A stretch of DNA of 64,000 bases, taken from a virus (lineage: Duplodnaviria > Caudoviricetes). Shown here piece by piece: positions 2,575-43,157 of the stretch (positions are counted from its first letter, which is position 1; the number at the start of each line of letters is the position of its first letter). The notes beneath the pieces are model-generated. The model made no database searches. It was not told the DNA's origin and saw nothing but the letters and a program-made list of their open reading frames with translations. The translations under genes were made by a program, and so were the position numbers. The DNA lies in the IMG/VR virus record IMGVR_UViG_3300008255_000007, positions 20,153-84,152 of that record. One strand, 5' to 3'.

Positions 2575-3822
2575 ATGGCAAACGTACCAAACACCGTATC
2601 TACCTTAAATGGTAACTTCAAAGAAGTATATGCGGATAAAATTAAACAATTAGTCCCTGACAATGTAATGCTTTTGAACATGGTAGACTTTCTACCTTCT
2701 GACAAAGCACTAGGCAATGAATATCACCAGCCTGTAATCCTTGGACATGAGCATGGATTCAGCTACGGTGGAACTGATGGATCAGCTTTTGCTCTTAACG
2801 ATGCAATCGCAGGCGTTGTAAAAGATGCTAAAATCCAAGGTTATGAGTATGTTCTTCGTACTCAGATTTCATATGCTGCTGCTAGCCGCGCTGCTGCTAG
2901 TAAAGCTGCTTTTGAACGATCTACTAAGCTCATCGTAGCTAACATGATTCGTTCATTCGCTAAGCGTCTTGAAATTTCAATGTTCTACGGTCAAACACCT
3001 CTTGCTACTGTTGGAGCTGGTACTACCACTACTTCATTGGCAATTCCTGCTGCTGACTGGGCTGCTGGTGTATGGGTAGGTTCTGAACAAGCTGAAGTTG
3101 AACTTTTCGACGGTTCAAGCAACACTCTTCGTGGTTCTGCTAAAATCAACGCAGTTGATCTTACAGCTCGTACTCTAGGTCTTGCTTCTGCTATCGCAGG
3201 TGCAGCTTCTGGAGATACTTTGTACTTCAAGAGTGCTAAAATCCAAGGATCTGCTGGACATAATGACCTTAAAGGTCTTCAATCCATCATCCAAGAATCC
3301 GCTACTCTTTTCAACATTTCTACTAGCTCTTACAGCTTGTGGAAAGGTAACACTTACAGTGCAGGTTCTGCTGATCTTTCTTTCGAGAAGATTCAAGAAG
3401 CTATTGCTGTAGCTGTTGAAAAAGGTCTTGATGAAGACGTTACATGTATTGTTAACCACAAAACATGGGCTAAGCTTTTGACAGATCAAGCTGCTCTTAG
3501 AATGTATGATTCTTCATACAGCCGAGAAGTAGCTGAAAACGGTTCTCAATCAATCAAGTTCCATTCACAAAATGGTTCTGTTGAGATTCGTCCTTGTACT
3601 TATGTTAAAGAATCCCTAGCTTTCGTACTTCCTACTAAGACTTTGATGCGTGTTGGTTCAACTGACATTACATTCAAACTTCCTGGTCAAGAGTATGAAG
3701 ATAGATTCTTCCGTGAGTTGGAAAGTAATGCTGGTTTTGAGTTGAGAGCCTATACCGATCAGGCACTTTTTTGTGACACCCCAGGCAAACTCGTACTCAT
3801 AACAAATATAGTAAATTCTTAA
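2575..3822 (+). CDS. major capsid protein
   Basis: 415 aa after scaffold, strong SD (aggag), highly biased codon usage (TTC/AAC/ATC/CGT), terminator downstream. Confidence 0.85.
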   Translation: MANVPNTVSTLNGNFKEVYADKIKQLVPDNVMLLNMVDFLPSDKALGNEYHQPVILGHEHGFSYGGTDGSAFALNDAIAGVVKDAKIQGYEYVLRTQISYAAASRAAASKAAFERSTKLIVANMIRSFAKRLEISMFYGQTPLATVGAGTTTTSLAIPAADWAAGVWVGSEQAEVELFDGSSNTLRGSAKINAVDLTARTLGLASAIAGAASGDTLYFKSAKIQGSAGHNDLKGLQSIIQESATLFNISTSSYSLWKGNTYSAGSADLSFEKIQEAIAVAVEKGLDEDVTCIVNHKTWAKLLTDQAALRMYDSSYSREVAENGSQSIKFHSQNGSVEIRPCTYVKESLAFVLPTKTLMRVGSTDITFKLPGQEYEDRFFRELESNAGFELRAYTDQALFCDTPGKLVLITNIVNS

Positions 3823-3848: not shown

Positions 3849-3884
3849 AAAGACCTTGCTCTCTTAATTGAAGGCAGGGTCTTT
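3849..3884 (+). terminator. hairpin after MCP
   Basis: aaagaccttgc (3849-3859) pairs with gcagggtcttt (3874-3884), followed by a T-rich tract. Confidence 0.65.
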
Positions 3885-3894
3885 CACTTTAGTG

Positions 3895-3924
3895 TTGACA
3901 CATTTTACTTTTGTACATTATAAT
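3895..3924 (+). promoter_or_regulatory. sigma70-type promoter, leaderless HNH mRNA
   Basis: TTGACA-18-TATAAT, then 6 nt, then ATG at 3931. Confidence 0.8.
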
Positions 3925-3930
3925 AATATT

Positions 3931-4560
3931 ATGAAAAAGAAAACACTAACATTAGAGCACAGAAAAGCACTTAGCGAAGCTGCTAAGATATCAAATTCTA
4001 CTAGAGTCTTATCTGAAGAAACTTTAAAGAAGATGAGCGACTCTGCTAAGAAAAGAGAAGCTGCCAAAGAAGATAAAACTCTACCAGAAGGTATGATTAA
4101 ACGTAAAGAGCATATATGGCTAAAAGATATAGAGTGTAAAGAGTGCTCTAAGTGTAAAGGAGTTAAACCTTTAACTGAATTTGGAAAAGATAAAAGTGCT
4201 AAATGGGATGGACTAAACTACTACTGTAAAGTATGCCATAATCAGAATAGGAAAAAAGCATATAAAACTACTAAAAAATATGAAAATAAATATGCAGTTA
4301 ATAGAAGAAGACAGTTAAAAATAGAAGCTGTAGAATATAAAGGTGGGATATGTCAAAAGTGTGGATTAAAACATGAAACTAATCATAATACCGCCGCTTT
4401 CCAGTTCCACCATAGAGACCCCTCTAAGAAAGACTTTACTATAGCAGCGAGGACTACTACGGTATTAGACAATTTAAAACCAGAATTAGATAAATGCGAC
4501 TTATTATGTGCCACATGTCATCATATAGTCCACTGGAGCCTTAAAAAAGACCTAGACTAA
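3931..4560 (+). CDS. free-standing HNH homing endonuclease with NUMOD3-like N-terminus
   Basis: Repeats EHRKALSEA and EETLKKMSDS, CxxC zinc motifs, FHHRDP...KCDLLCATCH. Start moved to ATG 3931 from the promoter geometry. Confidence 0.85.
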   Translation: MKKKTLTLEHRKALSEAAKISNSTRVLSEETLKKMSDSAKKREAAKEDKTLPEGMIKRKEHIWLKDIECKECSKCKGVKPLTEFGKDKSAKWDGLNYYCKVCHNQNRKKAYKTTKKYENKYAVNRRRQLKIEAVEYKGGICQKCGLKHETNHNTAAFQFHHRDPSKKDFTIAARTTTVLDNLKPELDKCDLLCATCHHIVHWSLKKDLD

Positions 4561-4581
4561 TATCTAAAACTATGATATGCT
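4553..4581 (+). promoter_or_regulatory. sigma70-type promoter of tRNA-like RNA
   Basis: TAGACT-17-TATGCT with extended TGn. +1 is predicted at G4588, the first base of the acceptor stem. Confidence 0.7.
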
Positions 4582-4587
4582 ACTCAA

Positions 4588-4721
4588 GTTCCTAGCGGCG
4601 TGGAAAGCAGACACGCTAAACATAGTTAAATAAGACTAGGCTTTCTAGAAGCCGAAAAGAGAGTAGAAGCTATGGTCCGCATCTCGAAGTCTTAGTAGGA
4701 GTAGCGACCTACCTAGGAGCA
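4588..4721 (+). ncRNA. tRNA-like structured RNA lacking an anticodon arm
   Basis: 8-bp acceptor stem GTTCCTAG/CTAGGAGC plus A, D-like arm GCGTG/CACGC, T-like arm GTAGG/CCTAC stacked on the acceptor, inner stems and a 7-bp pseudoknot. Confidence 0.75.
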
Positions 4722-4741
4722 CTTCTTAAACAACTCCTTAT

Positions 4742-5140
4742 ATGGAATCTAAAAAATACTTTATATTTAATAAGGGCGAGAAATTTAAGTTATCTGATAA
4801 TTTCAGTAGTCATGAACTAGAATGCAAATGTTCTAGAGCTGATTGCATAGAACAGAAGATATCCGTAAATTTAATAGAAAAACTACAGAAAATAAGAGAA
4901 AAGTTAGGTAAGTCTTTAAAGATTACCAGCGGTTATAGGTGCGAAGCCCATAACAAAGCTATAGGAGGTGCTGCTAAAAGTCAGCACATTCTAGGAAACG
5001 CCGTAGACCTTAAAACAGAGGATATGGACTCTCTAGAAGCTTTAGTAGAAGTTGAATTTGATGCTGTAGGTAATGCCAAGCCTTCCTTCTTACATGTAGA
5101 TGTAAGAGATACTAAAAACAAACTAAGATGGACCTATTAA
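4742..5140 (+). CDS. peptidase M15A-type endolysin (Zn peptidoglycan peptidase)
   Basis: ITSGYRC..HN..IGGA..SQH..G.AVD and FLHVDVR motifs. Confidence 0.85.
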   Translation: MESKKYFIFNKGEKFKLSDNFSSHELECKCSRADCIEQKISVNLIEKLQKIREKLGKSLKITSGYRCEAHNKAIGGAAKSQHILGNAVDLKTEDMDSLEALVEVEFDAVGNAKPSFLHVDVRDTKNKLRWTY

Positions 5141-6737: not shown

Positions 6738-8701
6738 TGTCAAACGTAAGAACAATGTTAGCTGACTACCTTTTAGGTACAGGCGATTTAAAACGTAACT
6801 ATATAAAAAACCCTATAGCTGAAAAGAATATACTTAATATTACAGCTTCTGGAGCAGTAGTTACTAGAAATACTACTAATCCTTTAACTCAAGATGCAGA
6901 CATTCAAATTGTAATGGATGCCGTAAATGAATATGCTGAATTTGGAACTAATAGCCTAGATCGTGCTATGAAGGGGCAAAACTGCCAAGTTAAGTTTGAT
7001 TATAAACTAACTAAAGGAGCAGGCGCTACAGTACTAGTTCGTTTAATGGACGGTTCTGCTATAGCCTCTGAATTAGAGCTTATTGATGAAGCAGATGCTA
7101 GACCTGTTTCTATGAATTTTGCATGTTCTGATCCTTCTACAGCAGACTACACAGTTAGATTTATTCAAACAGTAGCTACTACTGAATCAATTCTTAACGT
7201 GACTAATGTTTATTTAGGTAAAGCTGATAATATCAGTAATATAAATCAGGCTGAGCTATATACAGAAGCTTATATACAACCAGCCTCTAATTGTACGTAT
7301 TCTGGAGTATCAGATACTTATGCATCTTTTGGACCAGATACTGATTGTAATTTCTTATCTATTGAATATGGAAAAGGATCTCCCCCTGATACAAAAATAC
7401 CAGCAATAAAATACGAGCATCTACCTGCAGGTAGGTACAAAGTAACAATGAAATTTCAAGTTCAAAATCCTACATCGAATGGCATATGCTTTTTTAGAAT
7501 TAACGACGGAGTGTCAAATAAAGGAACCTCCATGCATAGGCAATCAGGTACTGGAGAGTATACAACACAAGTAGTTTCTGGAGTATTTGAGTATGATACT
7601 CCTCAAACAAATAAAAAATTCGAGCTTTTTTACCTAGAACCTGCTGCTACAACTTGCACAGTTCCTATAGAAGATACTAATAGAGTTTTTCAACTTACAG
7701 TAGAGCGCTACCCTCTAGACTCCCAACAAGTTCTTTCAGTAGATGCTAGTCAGTGGTTAGTGGATGCTAGTATATCAACTAGTAATGCTGCCATCGATTT
7801 AGGATTAGTAGACGTAACTACATATACTGAAATAACTGATTCTGCATTAACATTAACTAATAATACTTCTAAAGGGTCTACTCCTAGCGTTCAGATACCA
7901 TGTTCTGGAACAGAAGTTCCAAGTTCTAGTACGTGTGGTGGGGATGAATCCTTAGGTATAAGTTTTGAAATAATAAAAACAGGATTATATGAAGTATGTT
8001 CGAGTTTTACTCATCAATTTAACTCTACTTCAGGTACGAATGACGCTACTTTTCAACTAGTAGAAACTCCAACTGATGCTCAGACCATTTTACAATACGG
8101 AGGAGGTATGGCCTCTACTAGGTCTTCTGTTGGTGGAAATATAGGATTTCCTGTAAAAACTTGTGGAACTTTTAATTTTAATAGCGTAGGTAGGAAAGTA
8201 ATAAGAGTTATGTATGAGCAAAATGAAGCTACTACATTAGCTAATTCCTTTTTATTAATAAATAAAACAGACACTAATGCAGGAGATAGAGAAGCTTTTT
8301 TTACAGTACGTCCTATTACTCAAAATCAGCCAGCAGTAGTACTAGCTAATAGTGTTAGTAGTAATGGAACAGGCCCTTTTAGGATTGAGAGCGTTACTTT
8401 TGGTGGAGCAAGTGCAGCTACTTCCTGTACTTCAACTCCATGTACTCTTTATAATGAAACTGGATCATGGGTAAGTAGCGTAGCTAGAAATGCTATAGGC
8501 GACTATACTTTAAATATTATTTCTGGAATTTTTAGCAGTGCTCCTAATTGTGTAATTATGCCTTCTGAAGGAAGAGATATTGGACTAGATGCAATTTCTA
8601 CAGCAACTGATGTTAGTTTTAAAGCTAGAGAAAACGCCTCTAATACGGATGGAGATACATTCGGAGTAATTATGTGCATGGGCTTAAAAGGAAACGGATA
8701 A
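6737..8701 (+). CDS. tail fibre / receptor-binding protein
   Basis: 654 aa, Thr/Ser-rich beta modules with paired Cys, C-terminal SSVARNAIGDYTLN..SAPNC module. Confidence 0.6.
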   Translation: MSNVRTMLADYLLGTGDLKRNYIKNPIAEKNILNITASGAVVTRNTTNPLTQDADIQIVMDAVNEYAEFGTNSLDRAMKGQNCQVKFDYKLTKGAGATVLVRLMDGSAIASELELIDEADARPVSMNFACSDPSTADYTVRFIQTVATTESILNVTNVYLGKADNISNINQAELYTEAYIQPASNCTYSGVSDTYASFGPDTDCNFLSIEYGKGSPPDTKIPAIKYEHLPAGRYKVTMKFQVQNPTSNGICFFRINDGVSNKGTSMHRQSGTGEYTTQVVSGVFEYDTPQTNKKFELFYLEPAATTCTVPIEDTNRVFQLTVERYPLDSQQVLSVDASQWLVDASISTSNAAIDLGLVDVTTYTEITDSALTLTNNTSKGSTPSVQIPCSGTEVPSSSTCGGDESLGISFEIIKTGLYEVCSSFTHQFNSTSGTNDATFQLVETPTDAQTILQYGGGMASTRSSVGGNIGFPVKTCGTFNFNSVGRKVIRVMYEQNEATTLANSFLLINKTDTNAGDREAFFTVRPITQNQPAVVLANSVSSNGTGPFRIESVTFGGASAATSCTSTPCTLYNETGSWVSSVARNAIGDYTLNIISGIFSSAPNCVIMPSEGRDIGLDAISTATDVSFKARENASNTDGDTFGVIMCMGLKGNG

Positions 8702-40017: not shown

Positions 40018-41028
40018 TTAAAATTCTCCGTCTACGATATTAGCAAAGTTAGGTCTAATTAAAGAAGCTACTTTAGAATTTAGCTGCTTATATATAAGTT
40101 TAGAATCTTTCTTATCTAAAGCATCTAACTCTTCAGATTTATCTTTTCTAAAGTCTTCAATAACATCTTTATTCATAAGTCCCATAAGCTTTCCAAAGTC
40201 CTTATCAGTTACTACTCCTATTTTAGATAGAACATTTCTTAGCCTATTCTCTATTATATATGAAGCTCCTTCATCTATCAAGCTTTTTATATTATCAGGA
40301 AGCTCAGGCTTAGGAGCTTTAGGTTTATGTTCTTTTTCAGTGAATTTCTCATTTTTATTCTTTATAATTACTCTAGTACCGTCGTAGACGAATAAAGGAG
40401 TAATAGGTTTAATGATAGTACCTTCACATGTGTTATCCTCAAGCTCGGGCAATCCTAGCCTAACAGGGATCATAGTGTTAAAAGTATTAGAATGTTCCAA
40501 GCACTCATCAAGAGTCCCACTATACAAAGTTTCGCAGAAAGGTATTCCATTATTATATAAGAAGCCATTAACATCCTGCACTGAAAGTAAACGTCCGTCT
40601 ACTACAATATCAAAGCCTATAAAATCTTGCTCTGGATTATAAAATACACCTTTTTGAACAGAAGAGTCTCCAGAGGCTTCTACATCTTTATGCGGATAAT
40701 GTCCTCCATATAGTTCTCCATATACAACTACTGTAGTATCTTCAATAGGTCTATGAAAAATACCACAAATATTACTATGCAAGTCGCGTAATCCTTTTTC
40801 ATACTTACTTAGTACTTTTTTATAATTAAAGAACTTCTCTTCTTCTTCAATGAATCCGGAACGCTTAGCCACTTTTATAGAGTTTTCATCAATCCAAAAG
40901 CTTAAATTAGCACCATGTACTTTCTCTTGTACTATATAAGTCTGAGAGTCGTATCCAGACTCTTTTATTTTGTTTATAAATTTAGTTCTATATGAGTTTT
41001 CTATTGAACTGTACTTTTTAAATTCCAT
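40018..41028 (-). CDS. RNA ligase, Rnl2 family
   Basis: EKVHGAN (motif I), YGELYGGHYPH, FDIV, EGTIIKP, IKNKNEKF.EK, plus the Rnl2 C-domain. Confidence 0.9.
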   Translation of the reverse strand: MEFKKYSSIENSYRTKFINKIKESGYDSQTYIVQEKVHGANLSFWIDENSIKVAKRSGFIEEEEKFFNYKKVLSKYEKGLRDLHSNICGIFHRPIEDTTVVVYGELYGGHYPHKDVEASGDSSVQKGVFYNPEQDFIGFDIVVDGRLLSVQDVNGFLYNNGIPFCETLYSGTLDECLEHSNTFNTMIPVRLGLPELEDNTCEGTIIKPITPLFVYDGTRVIIKNKNEKFTEKEHKPKAPKPELPDNIKSLIDEGASYIIENRLRNVLSKIGVVTDKDFGKLMGLMNKDVIEDFRKDKSEELDALDKKDSKLIYKQLNSKVASLIRPNFANIVDGEF

Positions 41029-42745
41029 TAGTAGCTCCTATTACATTTGATTTAGGTCTTATAGTTTTCATAACTAATTTATCTAAGTTATCAAACTTTC
41101 TATATAGTACAGGCCATATAGCCGCCGCACAAAGACCGTTTATCTGCTTGGCTTTTAACCCTAGTATCTTTTTAAACTCTTCAGAGCCTACGCTGACTTC
41201 AGGGTTATCGCACTTAACTCTATCAATTACTTCTGATGCTCTAAGGAGTAATACTTGAAAAGTGTCTTGGTAGAGATCCTCTAGTTGTCTAGTAAGCTCA
41301 TCAGCCTCTTTTCTAAATTCTTCAGGAAGTTGTGTTAGATAGTCTATCTTAACTTTACCATTCTCCATAGACTCATAGAAGGATAAAGGACTCATTTGAG
41401 AAATCATCCTGTGGATTCTGCAGTACTCTGCTCCTTTTATCTTAACCCTAAGTCCTGATTGGAATCTAACTACGAAGCCTTCTTTATCTTTAGGTAGGGT
41501 CTTTTGTAAGGCTACCATCTCACCAATAGTATAATTATACTCTTTTACTAAAGGCATACCTGAAGTCTTAGAAATAGTAAGTAGCTCGTCTCTAGAGCAC
41601 TCCTGCTCTGTGACTAAGTTATTAGCAGCTAGTAAGACCAACTCTTCTCTATTTCCATAATTAGCTACTATTTTATTATCAGGATAGATAATCTCAGCCA
41701 TAAGAGTAGTAGTTTTAGGTATACTAGACATATCATACTTTTTAAGAATCTCTAATCCTTTAACAGCCTGCTCAGAACTAAAAGCCCCACGAGTAGCTAC
41801 TCTCCACTCATTCTTATAGTTATAAATAATACCAAGACTTCCATCCATCTTTTCAGTGACTACGTAAGGTTCGTCTGGCAGATTACTTAGACTAGTCTCA
41901 GACATTTCCCCTAAATTAAAAAACTTGGACATAGCACACGCTACTAACTTACCAGTAGACTTTTCAAAGATAATACCTCTACTTATTCTAGTAATCTCAT
42001 TCCAAGCTCTTTCAAATGTGCACTGATCTGTATAGTTGTATAGTACTAAATCTAAATCATCACTAACTACTCTTCTTACATTCTTAGACTTTACTTCATT
42101 CTCAAATGGCATTAAAGTAAGACTAACATCGGAGCTATATTTATTAGTAAGTCTAGTAGGTATAAAATATTCTCCAGAGTTTTTAAGCTCTAGTATATCG
42201 TCTTCACTAAGAAGTTTAAGATCTGCATCGAAACACACGTCTATCATATTTCTTTTTTTACGATAATGTCCATGTAAATGTCCGTGAAGATAAAAAGAGT
42301 TAGGATTATTAACTGCCCTATATTCTAAGAACCTATTATCCTCTTCTATGCAAGGAGGTAAGTGAGTCATATAAACAGAGCTTCCATCCTTAAGAGTAAG
42401 AATAGTATCTGTAAATACATCCTTCCATCCAGCGTCTAAGTATTTATTTCTTTGTTTAGCTAGTTGATTTTGGTCCTTATGGAAAGTCTTAAATCCAGCA
42501 TCATGATTACCCAGAATTAAATATTTAGTACCATTTAGTTTATTGACTAGATAAGAGTCAAACACTTTAGATTTACTTATACTAAAATCTCCTAAGAAAA
42601 AGACTTTATCATCAACAGCTACTTGAGAGTTCCACTGAGATATAATAGCTTCATTCATCTCAGCTACATCATTATAAGGGCGGTTACAAAACTGTATAAT
42701 GTTCTTATGGTGAAAGTGTAAATCTGACGTAAACCATCTAGCCAT
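41018..42745 (-). CDS. calcineurin-like phosphoesterase fused to T4 Rnl1-like RNA ligase
   Basis: SDLHF.H, LGD, GNHD, HGHLH, then RG.IF, KFFN, EKMDGSL, EGFV, VKIK..Y; start moved to ATG 42745. Confidence 0.9.
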   Translation of the reverse strand: MARWFTSDLHFHHKNIIQFCNRPYNDVAEMNEAIISQWNSQVAVDDKVFFLGDFSISKSKVFDSYLVNKLNGTKYLILGNHDAGFKTFHKDQNQLAKQRNKYLDAGWKDVFTDTILTLKDGSSVYMTHLPPCIEEDNRFLEYRAVNNPNSFYLHGHLHGHYRKKRNMIDVCFDADLKLLSEDDILELKNSGEYFIPTRLTNKYSSDVSLTLMPFENEVKSKNVRRVVSDDLDLVLYNYTDQCTFERAWNEITRISRGIIFEKSTGKLVACAMSKFFNLGEMSETSLSNLPDEPYVVTEKMDGSLGIIYNYKNEWRVATRGAFSSEQAVKGLEILKKYDMSSIPKTTTLMAEIIYPDNKIVANYGNREELVLLAANNLVTEQECSRDELLTISKTSGMPLVKEYNYTIGEMVALQKTLPKDKEGFVVRFQSGLRVKIKGAEYCRIHRMISQMSPLSFYESMENGKVKIDYLTQLPEEFRKEADELTRQLEDLYQDTFQVLLLRASEVIDRVKCDNPEVSVGSEEFKKILGLKAKQINGLCAAAIWPVLYRKFDNLDKLVMKTIRPKSNVIGATNGI

Positions 42746-43157
42746 TATAAACCTCGTATATATCATACTCTATTCTAGTTACAGGCTCATAATTTTCTTC
42801 ATAGAAATCTAGAATCTTATTGGCTAGGGCTTCATCATTAGCAGCTACGGTAGGATGGTTATATCTACTAACTACCCTCTCTAGACAAGTAGCTCTAGGA
42901 GTTTTAAATTCTATAATGTGGATTGAGTACCCAGCTTCTCTAGCAGGTACGATATAACGTGACCTTTGGATACTATTAAAGTTCATACGATCAATTACTA
43001 TTAATTCTTCTCCAGAGTCTAGAGCTTCCTTAAATGCCTTACGATGTCCTTTAGATCCTAGCTCATCTTGATTAATTCTAGTATAGTTAGAGTAGTGTTT
43101 ACAAGATGTAGATTTACCAGCCCCAATAGGTCCTACAAGGACAACTAGTGTTTTCAT
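42738..43157 (-). CDS. polynucleotide kinase-type P-loop kinase (AAA_33-like)
   Basis: GPIGAGKST, INQDEL, VIDRMN, R.....R. Confidence 0.8.
   Translation of the reverse strand: MKTLVVLVGPIGAGKSTSCKHYSNYTRINQDELGSKGHRKAFKEALDSGEELIVIDRMNFNSIQRSRYIVPAREAGYSIHIIEFKTPRATCLERVVSRYNHPTVAANDEALANKILDFYEENYEPVTRIEYDIYEVYNG

Follow-up and report, generated by a model that had tools for sequence, protein, structure and literature searches.

We have identified a family of structured phage RNAs, one member of which lies in the stretch of DNA analysed here (the window; 64,000 nucleotides (nt), positions 20153-84152 of the 84,152-base-pair (bp) IMG/VR virus record IMGVR_UViG_3300008255_000007). The element comprises 133 bases on the plus strand and is laid out like a transfer RNA (tRNA). 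Comparison of homologs demonstrates that it belongs to a real, strand-specific, structured, non-decoding RNA family with tRNA-like proportions, namely a 7-8 bp terminal stem, a 2-nt linker, 5-bp arms and a T-like arm set flush on the terminal stem, as a preliminary description made from the sequence of the window had proposed. The core amounts to ~60 nt, partly conserved to the base, with ~20 near-invariant nt located in two loops and the junction. The family appears to be uncatalogued, being absent from Rfam and from the searched literature.

A conserved three-helix core

The architecture of the element in this phage is listed below. Every coordinate that had previously been assigned to the promoter, the stems, the arms and the terminal A4721 was found to be correct by direct reading.

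4553-4581, plus strand: putative sigma-70-type promoter (-35 TAGACT at 4553-4558, 17-nt spacer, extended -10 TGaTATGCT at 4573-4581)
4588-4595, plus strand: 5' strand of the terminal, acceptor-like stem (P1), pairing with 4713-4720
4596-4597, plus strand: linker C-G between P1 and hairpin A (C in 211 of 216 members)
4598-4616, plus strand: hairpin A (D-like arm), 5-bp stem 4598-4602/4612-4616 with a 9-nt loop, GAAAGCAGA, at 4603-4611
4617-4630, plus strand: single-stranded linker, in which 4621-4627 is the 5' arm of a proposed pseudoknot
4631-4694, plus strand: variable insert at the position of the anticodon arm, with a predicted fold of a basal stem (4631-4637/4688-4694) around two hairpins
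4668-4674, plus strand: 3' arm of the proposed pseudoknot, inside the insert
4695-4712, plus strand: hairpin B (T-like arm), 5-bp stem 4695-4699/4708-4712 with an 8-nt loop, AGUAGCGA, at 4700-4707, flush on P1
4713-4721, plus strand: 3' strand of P1 (stem 4713-4720) and A4721, with no encoded CCA

P1 is formed by 8 bp with one U-G pair. Its third pair is U-A, and G4595-C4713 is the invariant G-C pair with which the family closes P1 at the junction. The minimum-free-energy fold of the plus strand (-41.9 kcal/mol, z -2.86) yields the described helices, including the central stem and its two hairpins as previously drawn, and the fold of the minus strand is unremarkable (z -0.67).

Covariation among homologs, named in the preliminary description as a check, was assessed in an alignment of 38 homologs (pairing statistics) and in 216 members (mutual information), and it supports the three outer helices (P1, hairpin A and hairpin B). 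Among the 38 homologs these helices were 98.5% paired versus 77% in shuffled alignments, with 0 of 500 shuffles as good, and slid controls were 32-44% paired. P1 had 97% of its cells paired. Changes on both sides were seen at 11 pairs, comprising seven of the eight P1 pairs and four of the five hairpin B pairs. The same three helices were predicted independently by RNAalifold. Among the 216 members, the pairs with the highest mutual information were exactly the proposed pairs, P1 pairs ranking highest, and positions 14 and 26 of the hairpin A stem had a mutual information of 0.43. At the level of sequence comparison, and beyond folding, the three helices are proven.

Conservation of sequence is distributed differently from conservation of pairing. 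The closing helix has no conserved sequence except the invariant junction G-C pair. The UAGCG core of the hairpin B loop is near-invariant, and the first and last positions of this loop covary as A.C or G.U across the 216 members, giving a non-canonical closing pair. The linker 3' of hairpin A varies in length, with a median of 1 nt in the family.

Members were collected using the 20-mer at window positions 4597-4616 as the hairpin A bait. The exact 20-mer occurs in more than 118 viral contigs (IMG/VR) and in at least 99 species genomes (GTDB, one genome per species). Hairpin B used as bait recovered more members, in which the hairpin A stem is compensated (GGCGGG/CCCGC, GGCGCT/AGCGC, GGCATG/CATGC and GGCACG/CGTGC) and its loop unchanged; because fishing with hairpin B also reveals this compensation, the bias of the first bait is removed. 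Each scan gives a lower bound, and at least 216 distinct members (93-406 nt, median ~152 nt) have been collected. They share a recurring order: an 8-nt stretch leads into a C and the hairpin with loop GAAAGCAGA; after a variable region come a conserved A and the 5-bp hairpin whose loop reads NNUAGCGN, followed without a gap by the 3' strand of P1. At each match the 8-nt 5' stretch is complementary to the final 8 nt of the element. The window sequence has hairpin A 2 nt after P1, UAGCG in hairpin B and the invariant G-C pair in P1, and its hairpin B loop, AGUAGCGA, is found in many members. Members that were not used in training scored 31-87 bits against the family model, R1.

Rfam 15 gave no match to the element at gathering scores and noise only at E up to 10. 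ARAGORN called no tRNA or transfer-messenger RNA (tmRNA) at the element, nor at 18 or more homologs. A full-text literature search, which included the core sequence string, returned no description; a bulk catalogue from 2023 that lists 10,006 candidate viral RNAs (PMC10690425) may include the family, though uncharacterised. The preliminary description had not recognised the family, and these searches, in which YrlA was likewise not matched, agree with it.

Distribution, expression signals and variable inserts

Carriers range from the lytic-type 84-kb phage of the window, at 36% G+C, to G+C-rich temperate Pseudomonas and Ochrobactrum phages, together with prophages in at least six phyla. Most members are carried by small temperate phages. 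Host titles of the GTDB matches include Alpha-, Beta- and Gammaproteobacteria, Planctomycetota, Acidobacteriota, Verrucomicrobiota, Saccharibacteria and others. Named carriers are Pseudomonas phages Persinger, PotUPM1 and Orimi01, phages Orisa01-03, and Ochrobactrum phage POI1126; in annotated phages the element is either unannotated or overlaid by a hypothetical protein. No member was found in 5,426 complete Escherichia coli genomes. Among plasmids, one Brucella phage-plasmid carries a member, the other matches being due to chance or short.

Some phages have two or three full members a few kb apart, such as L042 (2742-2856 and 6471-6598, minus strand) and L301 (two to three copies). Isolated modules resembling hairpin B were also seen 70-190 nt downstream of a full member (L043, ~1190-1215; L221, 3183-3217; L223, 3171-3188). 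On contig L022, a Proteo-phage-1 RNA (RF03044, 71.7 bits; 7056-7136) is situated ~210 nt upstream of a member, so that two structured phage RNAs adjoin.

The preliminary description had called the element tRNA-shaped, and its relatives are found in phage tRNA arrays, on the strand of the tRNAs and spaced as tRNAs are. Of 180 members, 24 have tRNA genes within 1 kb; in 23 of these loci the tRNA genes share the strand of the element, and the distance, on one side or on both, is often 2-13 nt. Some members lie in the middle of a tRNA array, 2-7 nt from the tRNAs that flank them. A -10-like hexamer ends 5-10 nt before P1 in 42 of 211 members, compared to ~8 expected, with a peak at 5-6 nt. A terminator-like hairpin follows within 80 nt downstream in ~20 of 213 members.

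The promoter proposed in the window agrees with the consensus at 8 of 12 positions and has an extended -10 in addition, and its -35 element overlaps the stop codon of the upstream HNH gene. It was not listed by a consensus scan because of this partial match. Its -10 box stands 6 nt from P1, and the family-wide -10 peak supports this putative promoter. Transcription of the element would accordingly begin at about G4588, the start previously suggested, which fits the same peak.

Neighbouring genes are diverse. No protein family was found within 2.5 kb in more than 6 of 181 loci, and Pfam tallies of the nearest open reading frames (ORFs) gave a mixture of lysis, packaging, replication and lysogeny genes. 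Neither Ro60/Rsr nor RtcB-type genes were among the Pfam families listed for the neighbours (for the upstream tally, 25 of 35 families). In Persinger the element comes directly after the integrase gene and is followed by convergent genes; in Orimi01 and PotUPM1 it heads an early operon beside the repressor gene; in POI1126 it is near the capsid gene.

The inserts measure 40-300 nt and are hypervariable, falling into 189 sequence clusters among the 216 members, 178 of which are singletons. The window's insert is itself a singleton cluster. Pattern scans of IMG/VR and metagenomes for homologs of it gave chance matches only (a coding gene in L312 and a non-member, L313); the central fold and the pseudoknot therefore rest on one sequence. 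Of the pseudoknotted central domain that had been described, the 7-bp complementarity between 4621-4627 and 4668-4674 is present, but the domain is a hypervariable insert and not a conserved one. A shuffled linker reaches such a complement in 1.5% of cases for that loop and in 5.7% for the whole insert, and we treat the pseudoknot as a candidate complementarity that is unproven. When the genome of the phage itself was searched for an antisense target of the insert, the best candidate was a 14-nt complement in the capsid gene, at about chance level and involving bases that are paired in the RNA.

The largest insert class, class 1, has nine members (L016, L029, L052, L060, L100, L111, L159, L163 and L223). 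Found in Pseudomonas genomes and phage PotUPM1, it shows strongly conserved blocks with compensatory variable hairpins and resembles a self-contained structured RNA module; for this reason at least some inserts are constrained RNAs. Family inserts match no Rfam family, apart from two tRNA-like inserts with D and T arms that score ~31 bits with the Rfam tRNA model (L106, 1658-1794, minus strand; L112, 1043-1201). These two amount to a tRNA-shaped RNA nested within a tRNA-shaped core.

Genomic setting in the window

The source record has 35.7% G+C and a 54-bp terminal repeat and is rated complete. The element is situated within the structural gene block:

3-1340: portal gene
2575-3822: major capsid protein gene
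~3850-3885: G+C-rich terminator-like hairpin 3' of the capsid gene stop
3895-3924: perfect TTGACA-18-TATAAT promoter of the HNH gene (consensus promoter scan)
ending at 4560: free-standing HNH endonuclease gene
4588-4721, plus strand: RNA element
4742-5140: M15 peptidase / endolysin-type gene
40018-41028, minus strand: Rnl2-like RNA ligase, 336 amino acids
41018-42766, minus strand: phosphoesterase and Rnl1-like RNA ligase fusion, 582 amino acids

Because a terminator-like hairpin follows the capsid gene and a perfect promoter of its own precedes the HNH gene, the latter appears to have been inserted into the late operon and to be expressed on its own. A fragment of a group I intron carrying the HNH ORF was considered and ruled out by that hairpin, the perfect promoter and the complete peptidase domain. 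The capsid protein has one relative in IMG/VR (48% identity), and downstream of the relative's capsid gene there is no HNH gene, peptidase or RNA element. The family model found a single copy of the element in the window's own genome.

No terminator was found between 4721 and the peptidase ATG at 4742. Many genes of this phage have a well-spaced Shine-Dalgarno sequence, but the peptidase ORF lacks one. AGGAG (4715-4719), inside the 3' strand of P1, is located 22 nt upstream of this ATG and is complementary to CTCCT (4734-4738); an alternative AGGAG/CTCCT pairing could possibly link the RNA fold to translation of the peptidase.

ARAGORN detected no tRNA gene in the window or in the whole 84-kb phage genome, and the two adjacent RNA-repair genes (40018-42766) thus occur in a phage devoid of tRNA genes. 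Kits for tRNA repair usually accompany phage tRNAs or counter host anticodon nucleases. The element had been suggested as a decoy for host anticodon nucleases, an adaptor like Y RNA or tmRNA, or a substrate of the phage RNA-repair enzymes, roles for which the analysis gave no direct support; RNA ligases such as those found here are not characteristic of the small temperate phages in which most members reside.

Known RNAs and possible functions

In layout the family resembles tRNA (RF00005) and the tRNA-like domain of tmRNA. Common to them are the four-way arrangement, a terminal stem of 7-8 bp followed by a 2-nt linker, and 5-bp arms at the D and T positions, of which the T-position arm is stacked on the terminal stem; members also occur in tRNA arrays with 2-13 nt spacing. 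Unlike tRNA, the family lacks an anticodon arm, a UUCRA-type T loop, GG in the D loop and an encoded or enriched CCA. In the window there is no anticodon arm of 5 bp and 7 nt, the loops AGUAGCGA and GAAAGCAGA are both non-canonical, and the Rfam tRNA model gives no match. With respect to tmRNA, the element lacks the G3:U70 pair and a tag reading frame. Many of the 20-mer matches lie near contig ends, which raised the suspicion of a host tRNA fragment or attachment site; this was ruled out, as ARAGORN made no call and both halves with the covarying stem were always there.

The closest counterparts are the T4 species 1 and 2 RNAs (rnaC and rnaD), which are stable, non-decoding, 119-139 nt long and encoded beside same-strand tRNA genes, in a cluster where segB, encoding a homing endonuclease, is also located. 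No function is known for them yet (PMC3014915, PMC9697503). Unlike the present family, rnaC has a canonical T arm, and the T4 RNAs are confined to T4-like enterobacterial phages, whereas the family is absent from the E. coli genomes searched. With filters off, R1 reached at best 6.8 bits (E 1) on the T4 tRNA region. A link to rnaC through the heptamer AGUAGCG, which occurs twice in it, was rejected, since in T4-like homologs the heptamer lies in a covarying stem beside a CGUCAA loop and not in a loop of the hairpin B type. Within T4 itself (L314, NC_000866 70908-71171), inspection of the sequence suggests that rnaD could form a kissing contact with the adjacent rnaC: the loop of its 5' hairpin (GUCGCUA) is complementary to UAGCG, which is present twice in rnaC.

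Y RNAs of the YrlA/YrlB type are reportedly non-decoding, with both ends forming a closing stem and a tRNA-like module, and some are said to be phage-encoded. The present family resembles these Ro60/Rsr-bound RNAs in these respects. In contrast, YrlA has canonical T and D loops and a Ro-binding site in its closing stem, whereas the family has a freely varying stem and two conserved non-tRNA loops. Rfam models of the Y-RNA type gave no match, neither at the gathering score nor with E values up to 10. To our knowledge, 5S ribosomal RNA (rRNA), the Alu domain of the signal recognition particle RNA, RNase P RNA, GTPase-centre rRNA, the sarcin-ricin motif and tmRNA pseudoknots have only short strings in common with the element, and we make no claim from these.

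On balance, we favour the reading that the element is a stable, trans-acting, tRNA-shaped scaffold RNA, which would act through its invariant core and carry a lineage-specific insert. In the phage of the window it would be expressed from its own promoter, with transcription from the first base of the stem. In phages with tRNA arrays, host enzymes of tRNA processing would excise it, with RNase P cutting 5' of it and at the tRNA that follows. The two conserved loops may dock onto each other to give a compact, elbow-like core and hence a stable RNA. The RNA would not decode, because it has no anticodon arm, tRNA-type T loop or CCA. It would act in trans and independently of its neighbours; no neighbouring family recurs, and the positions in the named phages differ. 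A host component conserved across bacterial phyla would recognise the core, and the insert would confer lineage-specific specificity or be a tolerated expansion. As the core is conserved across phyla and carriers, the selective constraint on it is strong and general, and contact with a universal host component is probably its cause.

Several observations weigh against this reading. Neither of the two loops resembles a tRNA D or T loop. The acceptor end of a tRNA is also poorly matched: CCA is unencoded here and follows P1 in 6 of 213 members, showing no enrichment, and P1, which usually ends at 8-10 bp, is at least 4 bp longer in 33 of 213. Strict acceptor-end mimicry is thus doubtful, and a free acceptor end fits poorly with both counts. 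Inserts are only slightly more stable than their shuffles (mean z -0.53), and many of them may accordingly not be well-folded domains. The ends, processing and stability of the RNA are inferred, and docking of the loops is a guess that covariation cannot test, since the loop bases never vary. R1 scores 76 bits (E 1.3e-14) on the window; this is not independent evidence, as the window is one of its 38 training sequences. Finally, given that no terminator precedes the peptidase gene, the RNA of the window could equally be a 5' leader.

A cis-acting 5' leader is the main rival to the scaffold reading, although we regard it as unlikely. Folding at the very start of the transcript, such a leader would act on its own RNA or on the polymerase that is making it. 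It could promote processive antitermination, shield the mRNA 5' end from RNase E or regulate how the next gene, in this case that of the M15 peptidase, is translated. HK022 put RNA, a set of stem-loops of ~70-130 nt just after a promoter at operon heads, acts in cis as an antiterminator on RNA polymerase, and some members occupy comparable positions, heading an operon next to the repressor gene in Orimi01 and PotUPM1. RNA polymerase would also supply a target conserved phylum-wide. The -10 box that places the start at the first base of P1, the run without terminator from the element to the peptidase ATG, the poorly spaced Shine-Dalgarno sequence and the AGGAG/CTCCT complementarity are all consistent with a leader. 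However, members embedded in tRNA arrays, close to tRNAs on both sides, weaken this explanation and do not fit a put-like RNA, nor does the Persinger element, which precedes convergent genes. The terminator-like hairpins behind ~20 members and the lack of a recurrent downstream gene family also argue against it.

The remaining explanations are less likely. A small self-processing or catalytic RNA, with the ~20 near-invariant nt of the loops and junction as its active site and the insert as a peripheral domain, would account for the pattern typical of small ribozymes (invariant loops and junction, freely covarying stems, a variable periphery), for sequence conservation across phyla and for sites in tRNA arrays, where processing is needed. 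We nevertheless consider it very improbable: no Rfam model for the hammerhead, twister, pistol, hatchet or hepatitis delta virus-like ribozymes matches, and no ribozyme similarity is seen even at E up to 10; no unpaired position is conserved to which cleavage could be assigned; and members with their own promoter at the stem would need no 5' processing. An element acting at the DNA level, be it a site of attachment or recombination, a structure at an origin, or a partner or target of the adjacent HNH homing endonuclease, has a slimmer chance still. The element does come directly after a free-standing HNH gene with its own promoter, and after the integrase gene in Persinger, and a variable centre between conserved ends is reminiscent of structured recombination sites. 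On the other hand, few family members have an HNH or integrase gene nearby, the element is present once per genome and forms no arrays, and the -10 peak is found on one side only. Moreover, G-U pairs outnumber A-C pairs in P1 (38 versus 19 family-wide), and members abut tRNA genes in the same orientation. A tRNA gene in decay, or an odd tRNA that still decodes, can practically be dismissed: the cloverleaf-like proportions, a D-like hairpin loosely resembling class II tRNA D arms and the tRNA-like inserts of L106 and L112 are set against the lack of any tRNA found by ARAGORN or Rfam here or at 18 or more homologs, of a 7-nt anticodon loop, T-loop consensus or GG in the D-like loop, and against non-tRNA loops conserved over hundreds of phages, which decay would not produce.

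Returning to the scaffold reading, a more specific and tentative version of it is that the near-invariant core may be a chassis that expresses, processes and stabilises fast-diversifying inserts and engages a universal host machine for tRNA processing, translation or transcription. The inserts evolve freely, in contrast with the core. Phage non-coding RNAs are far less charted than phage proteins, and the stable RNAs of T4, found in the 1970s, still have no known role. Annotation pipelines now miss the element or call a hypothetical protein over it. Since members are present in cultivable, sequenced phages, function is directly testable. If the chassis version were true, the family would be a new class of modular phage RNA effector and not a tRNA relic.

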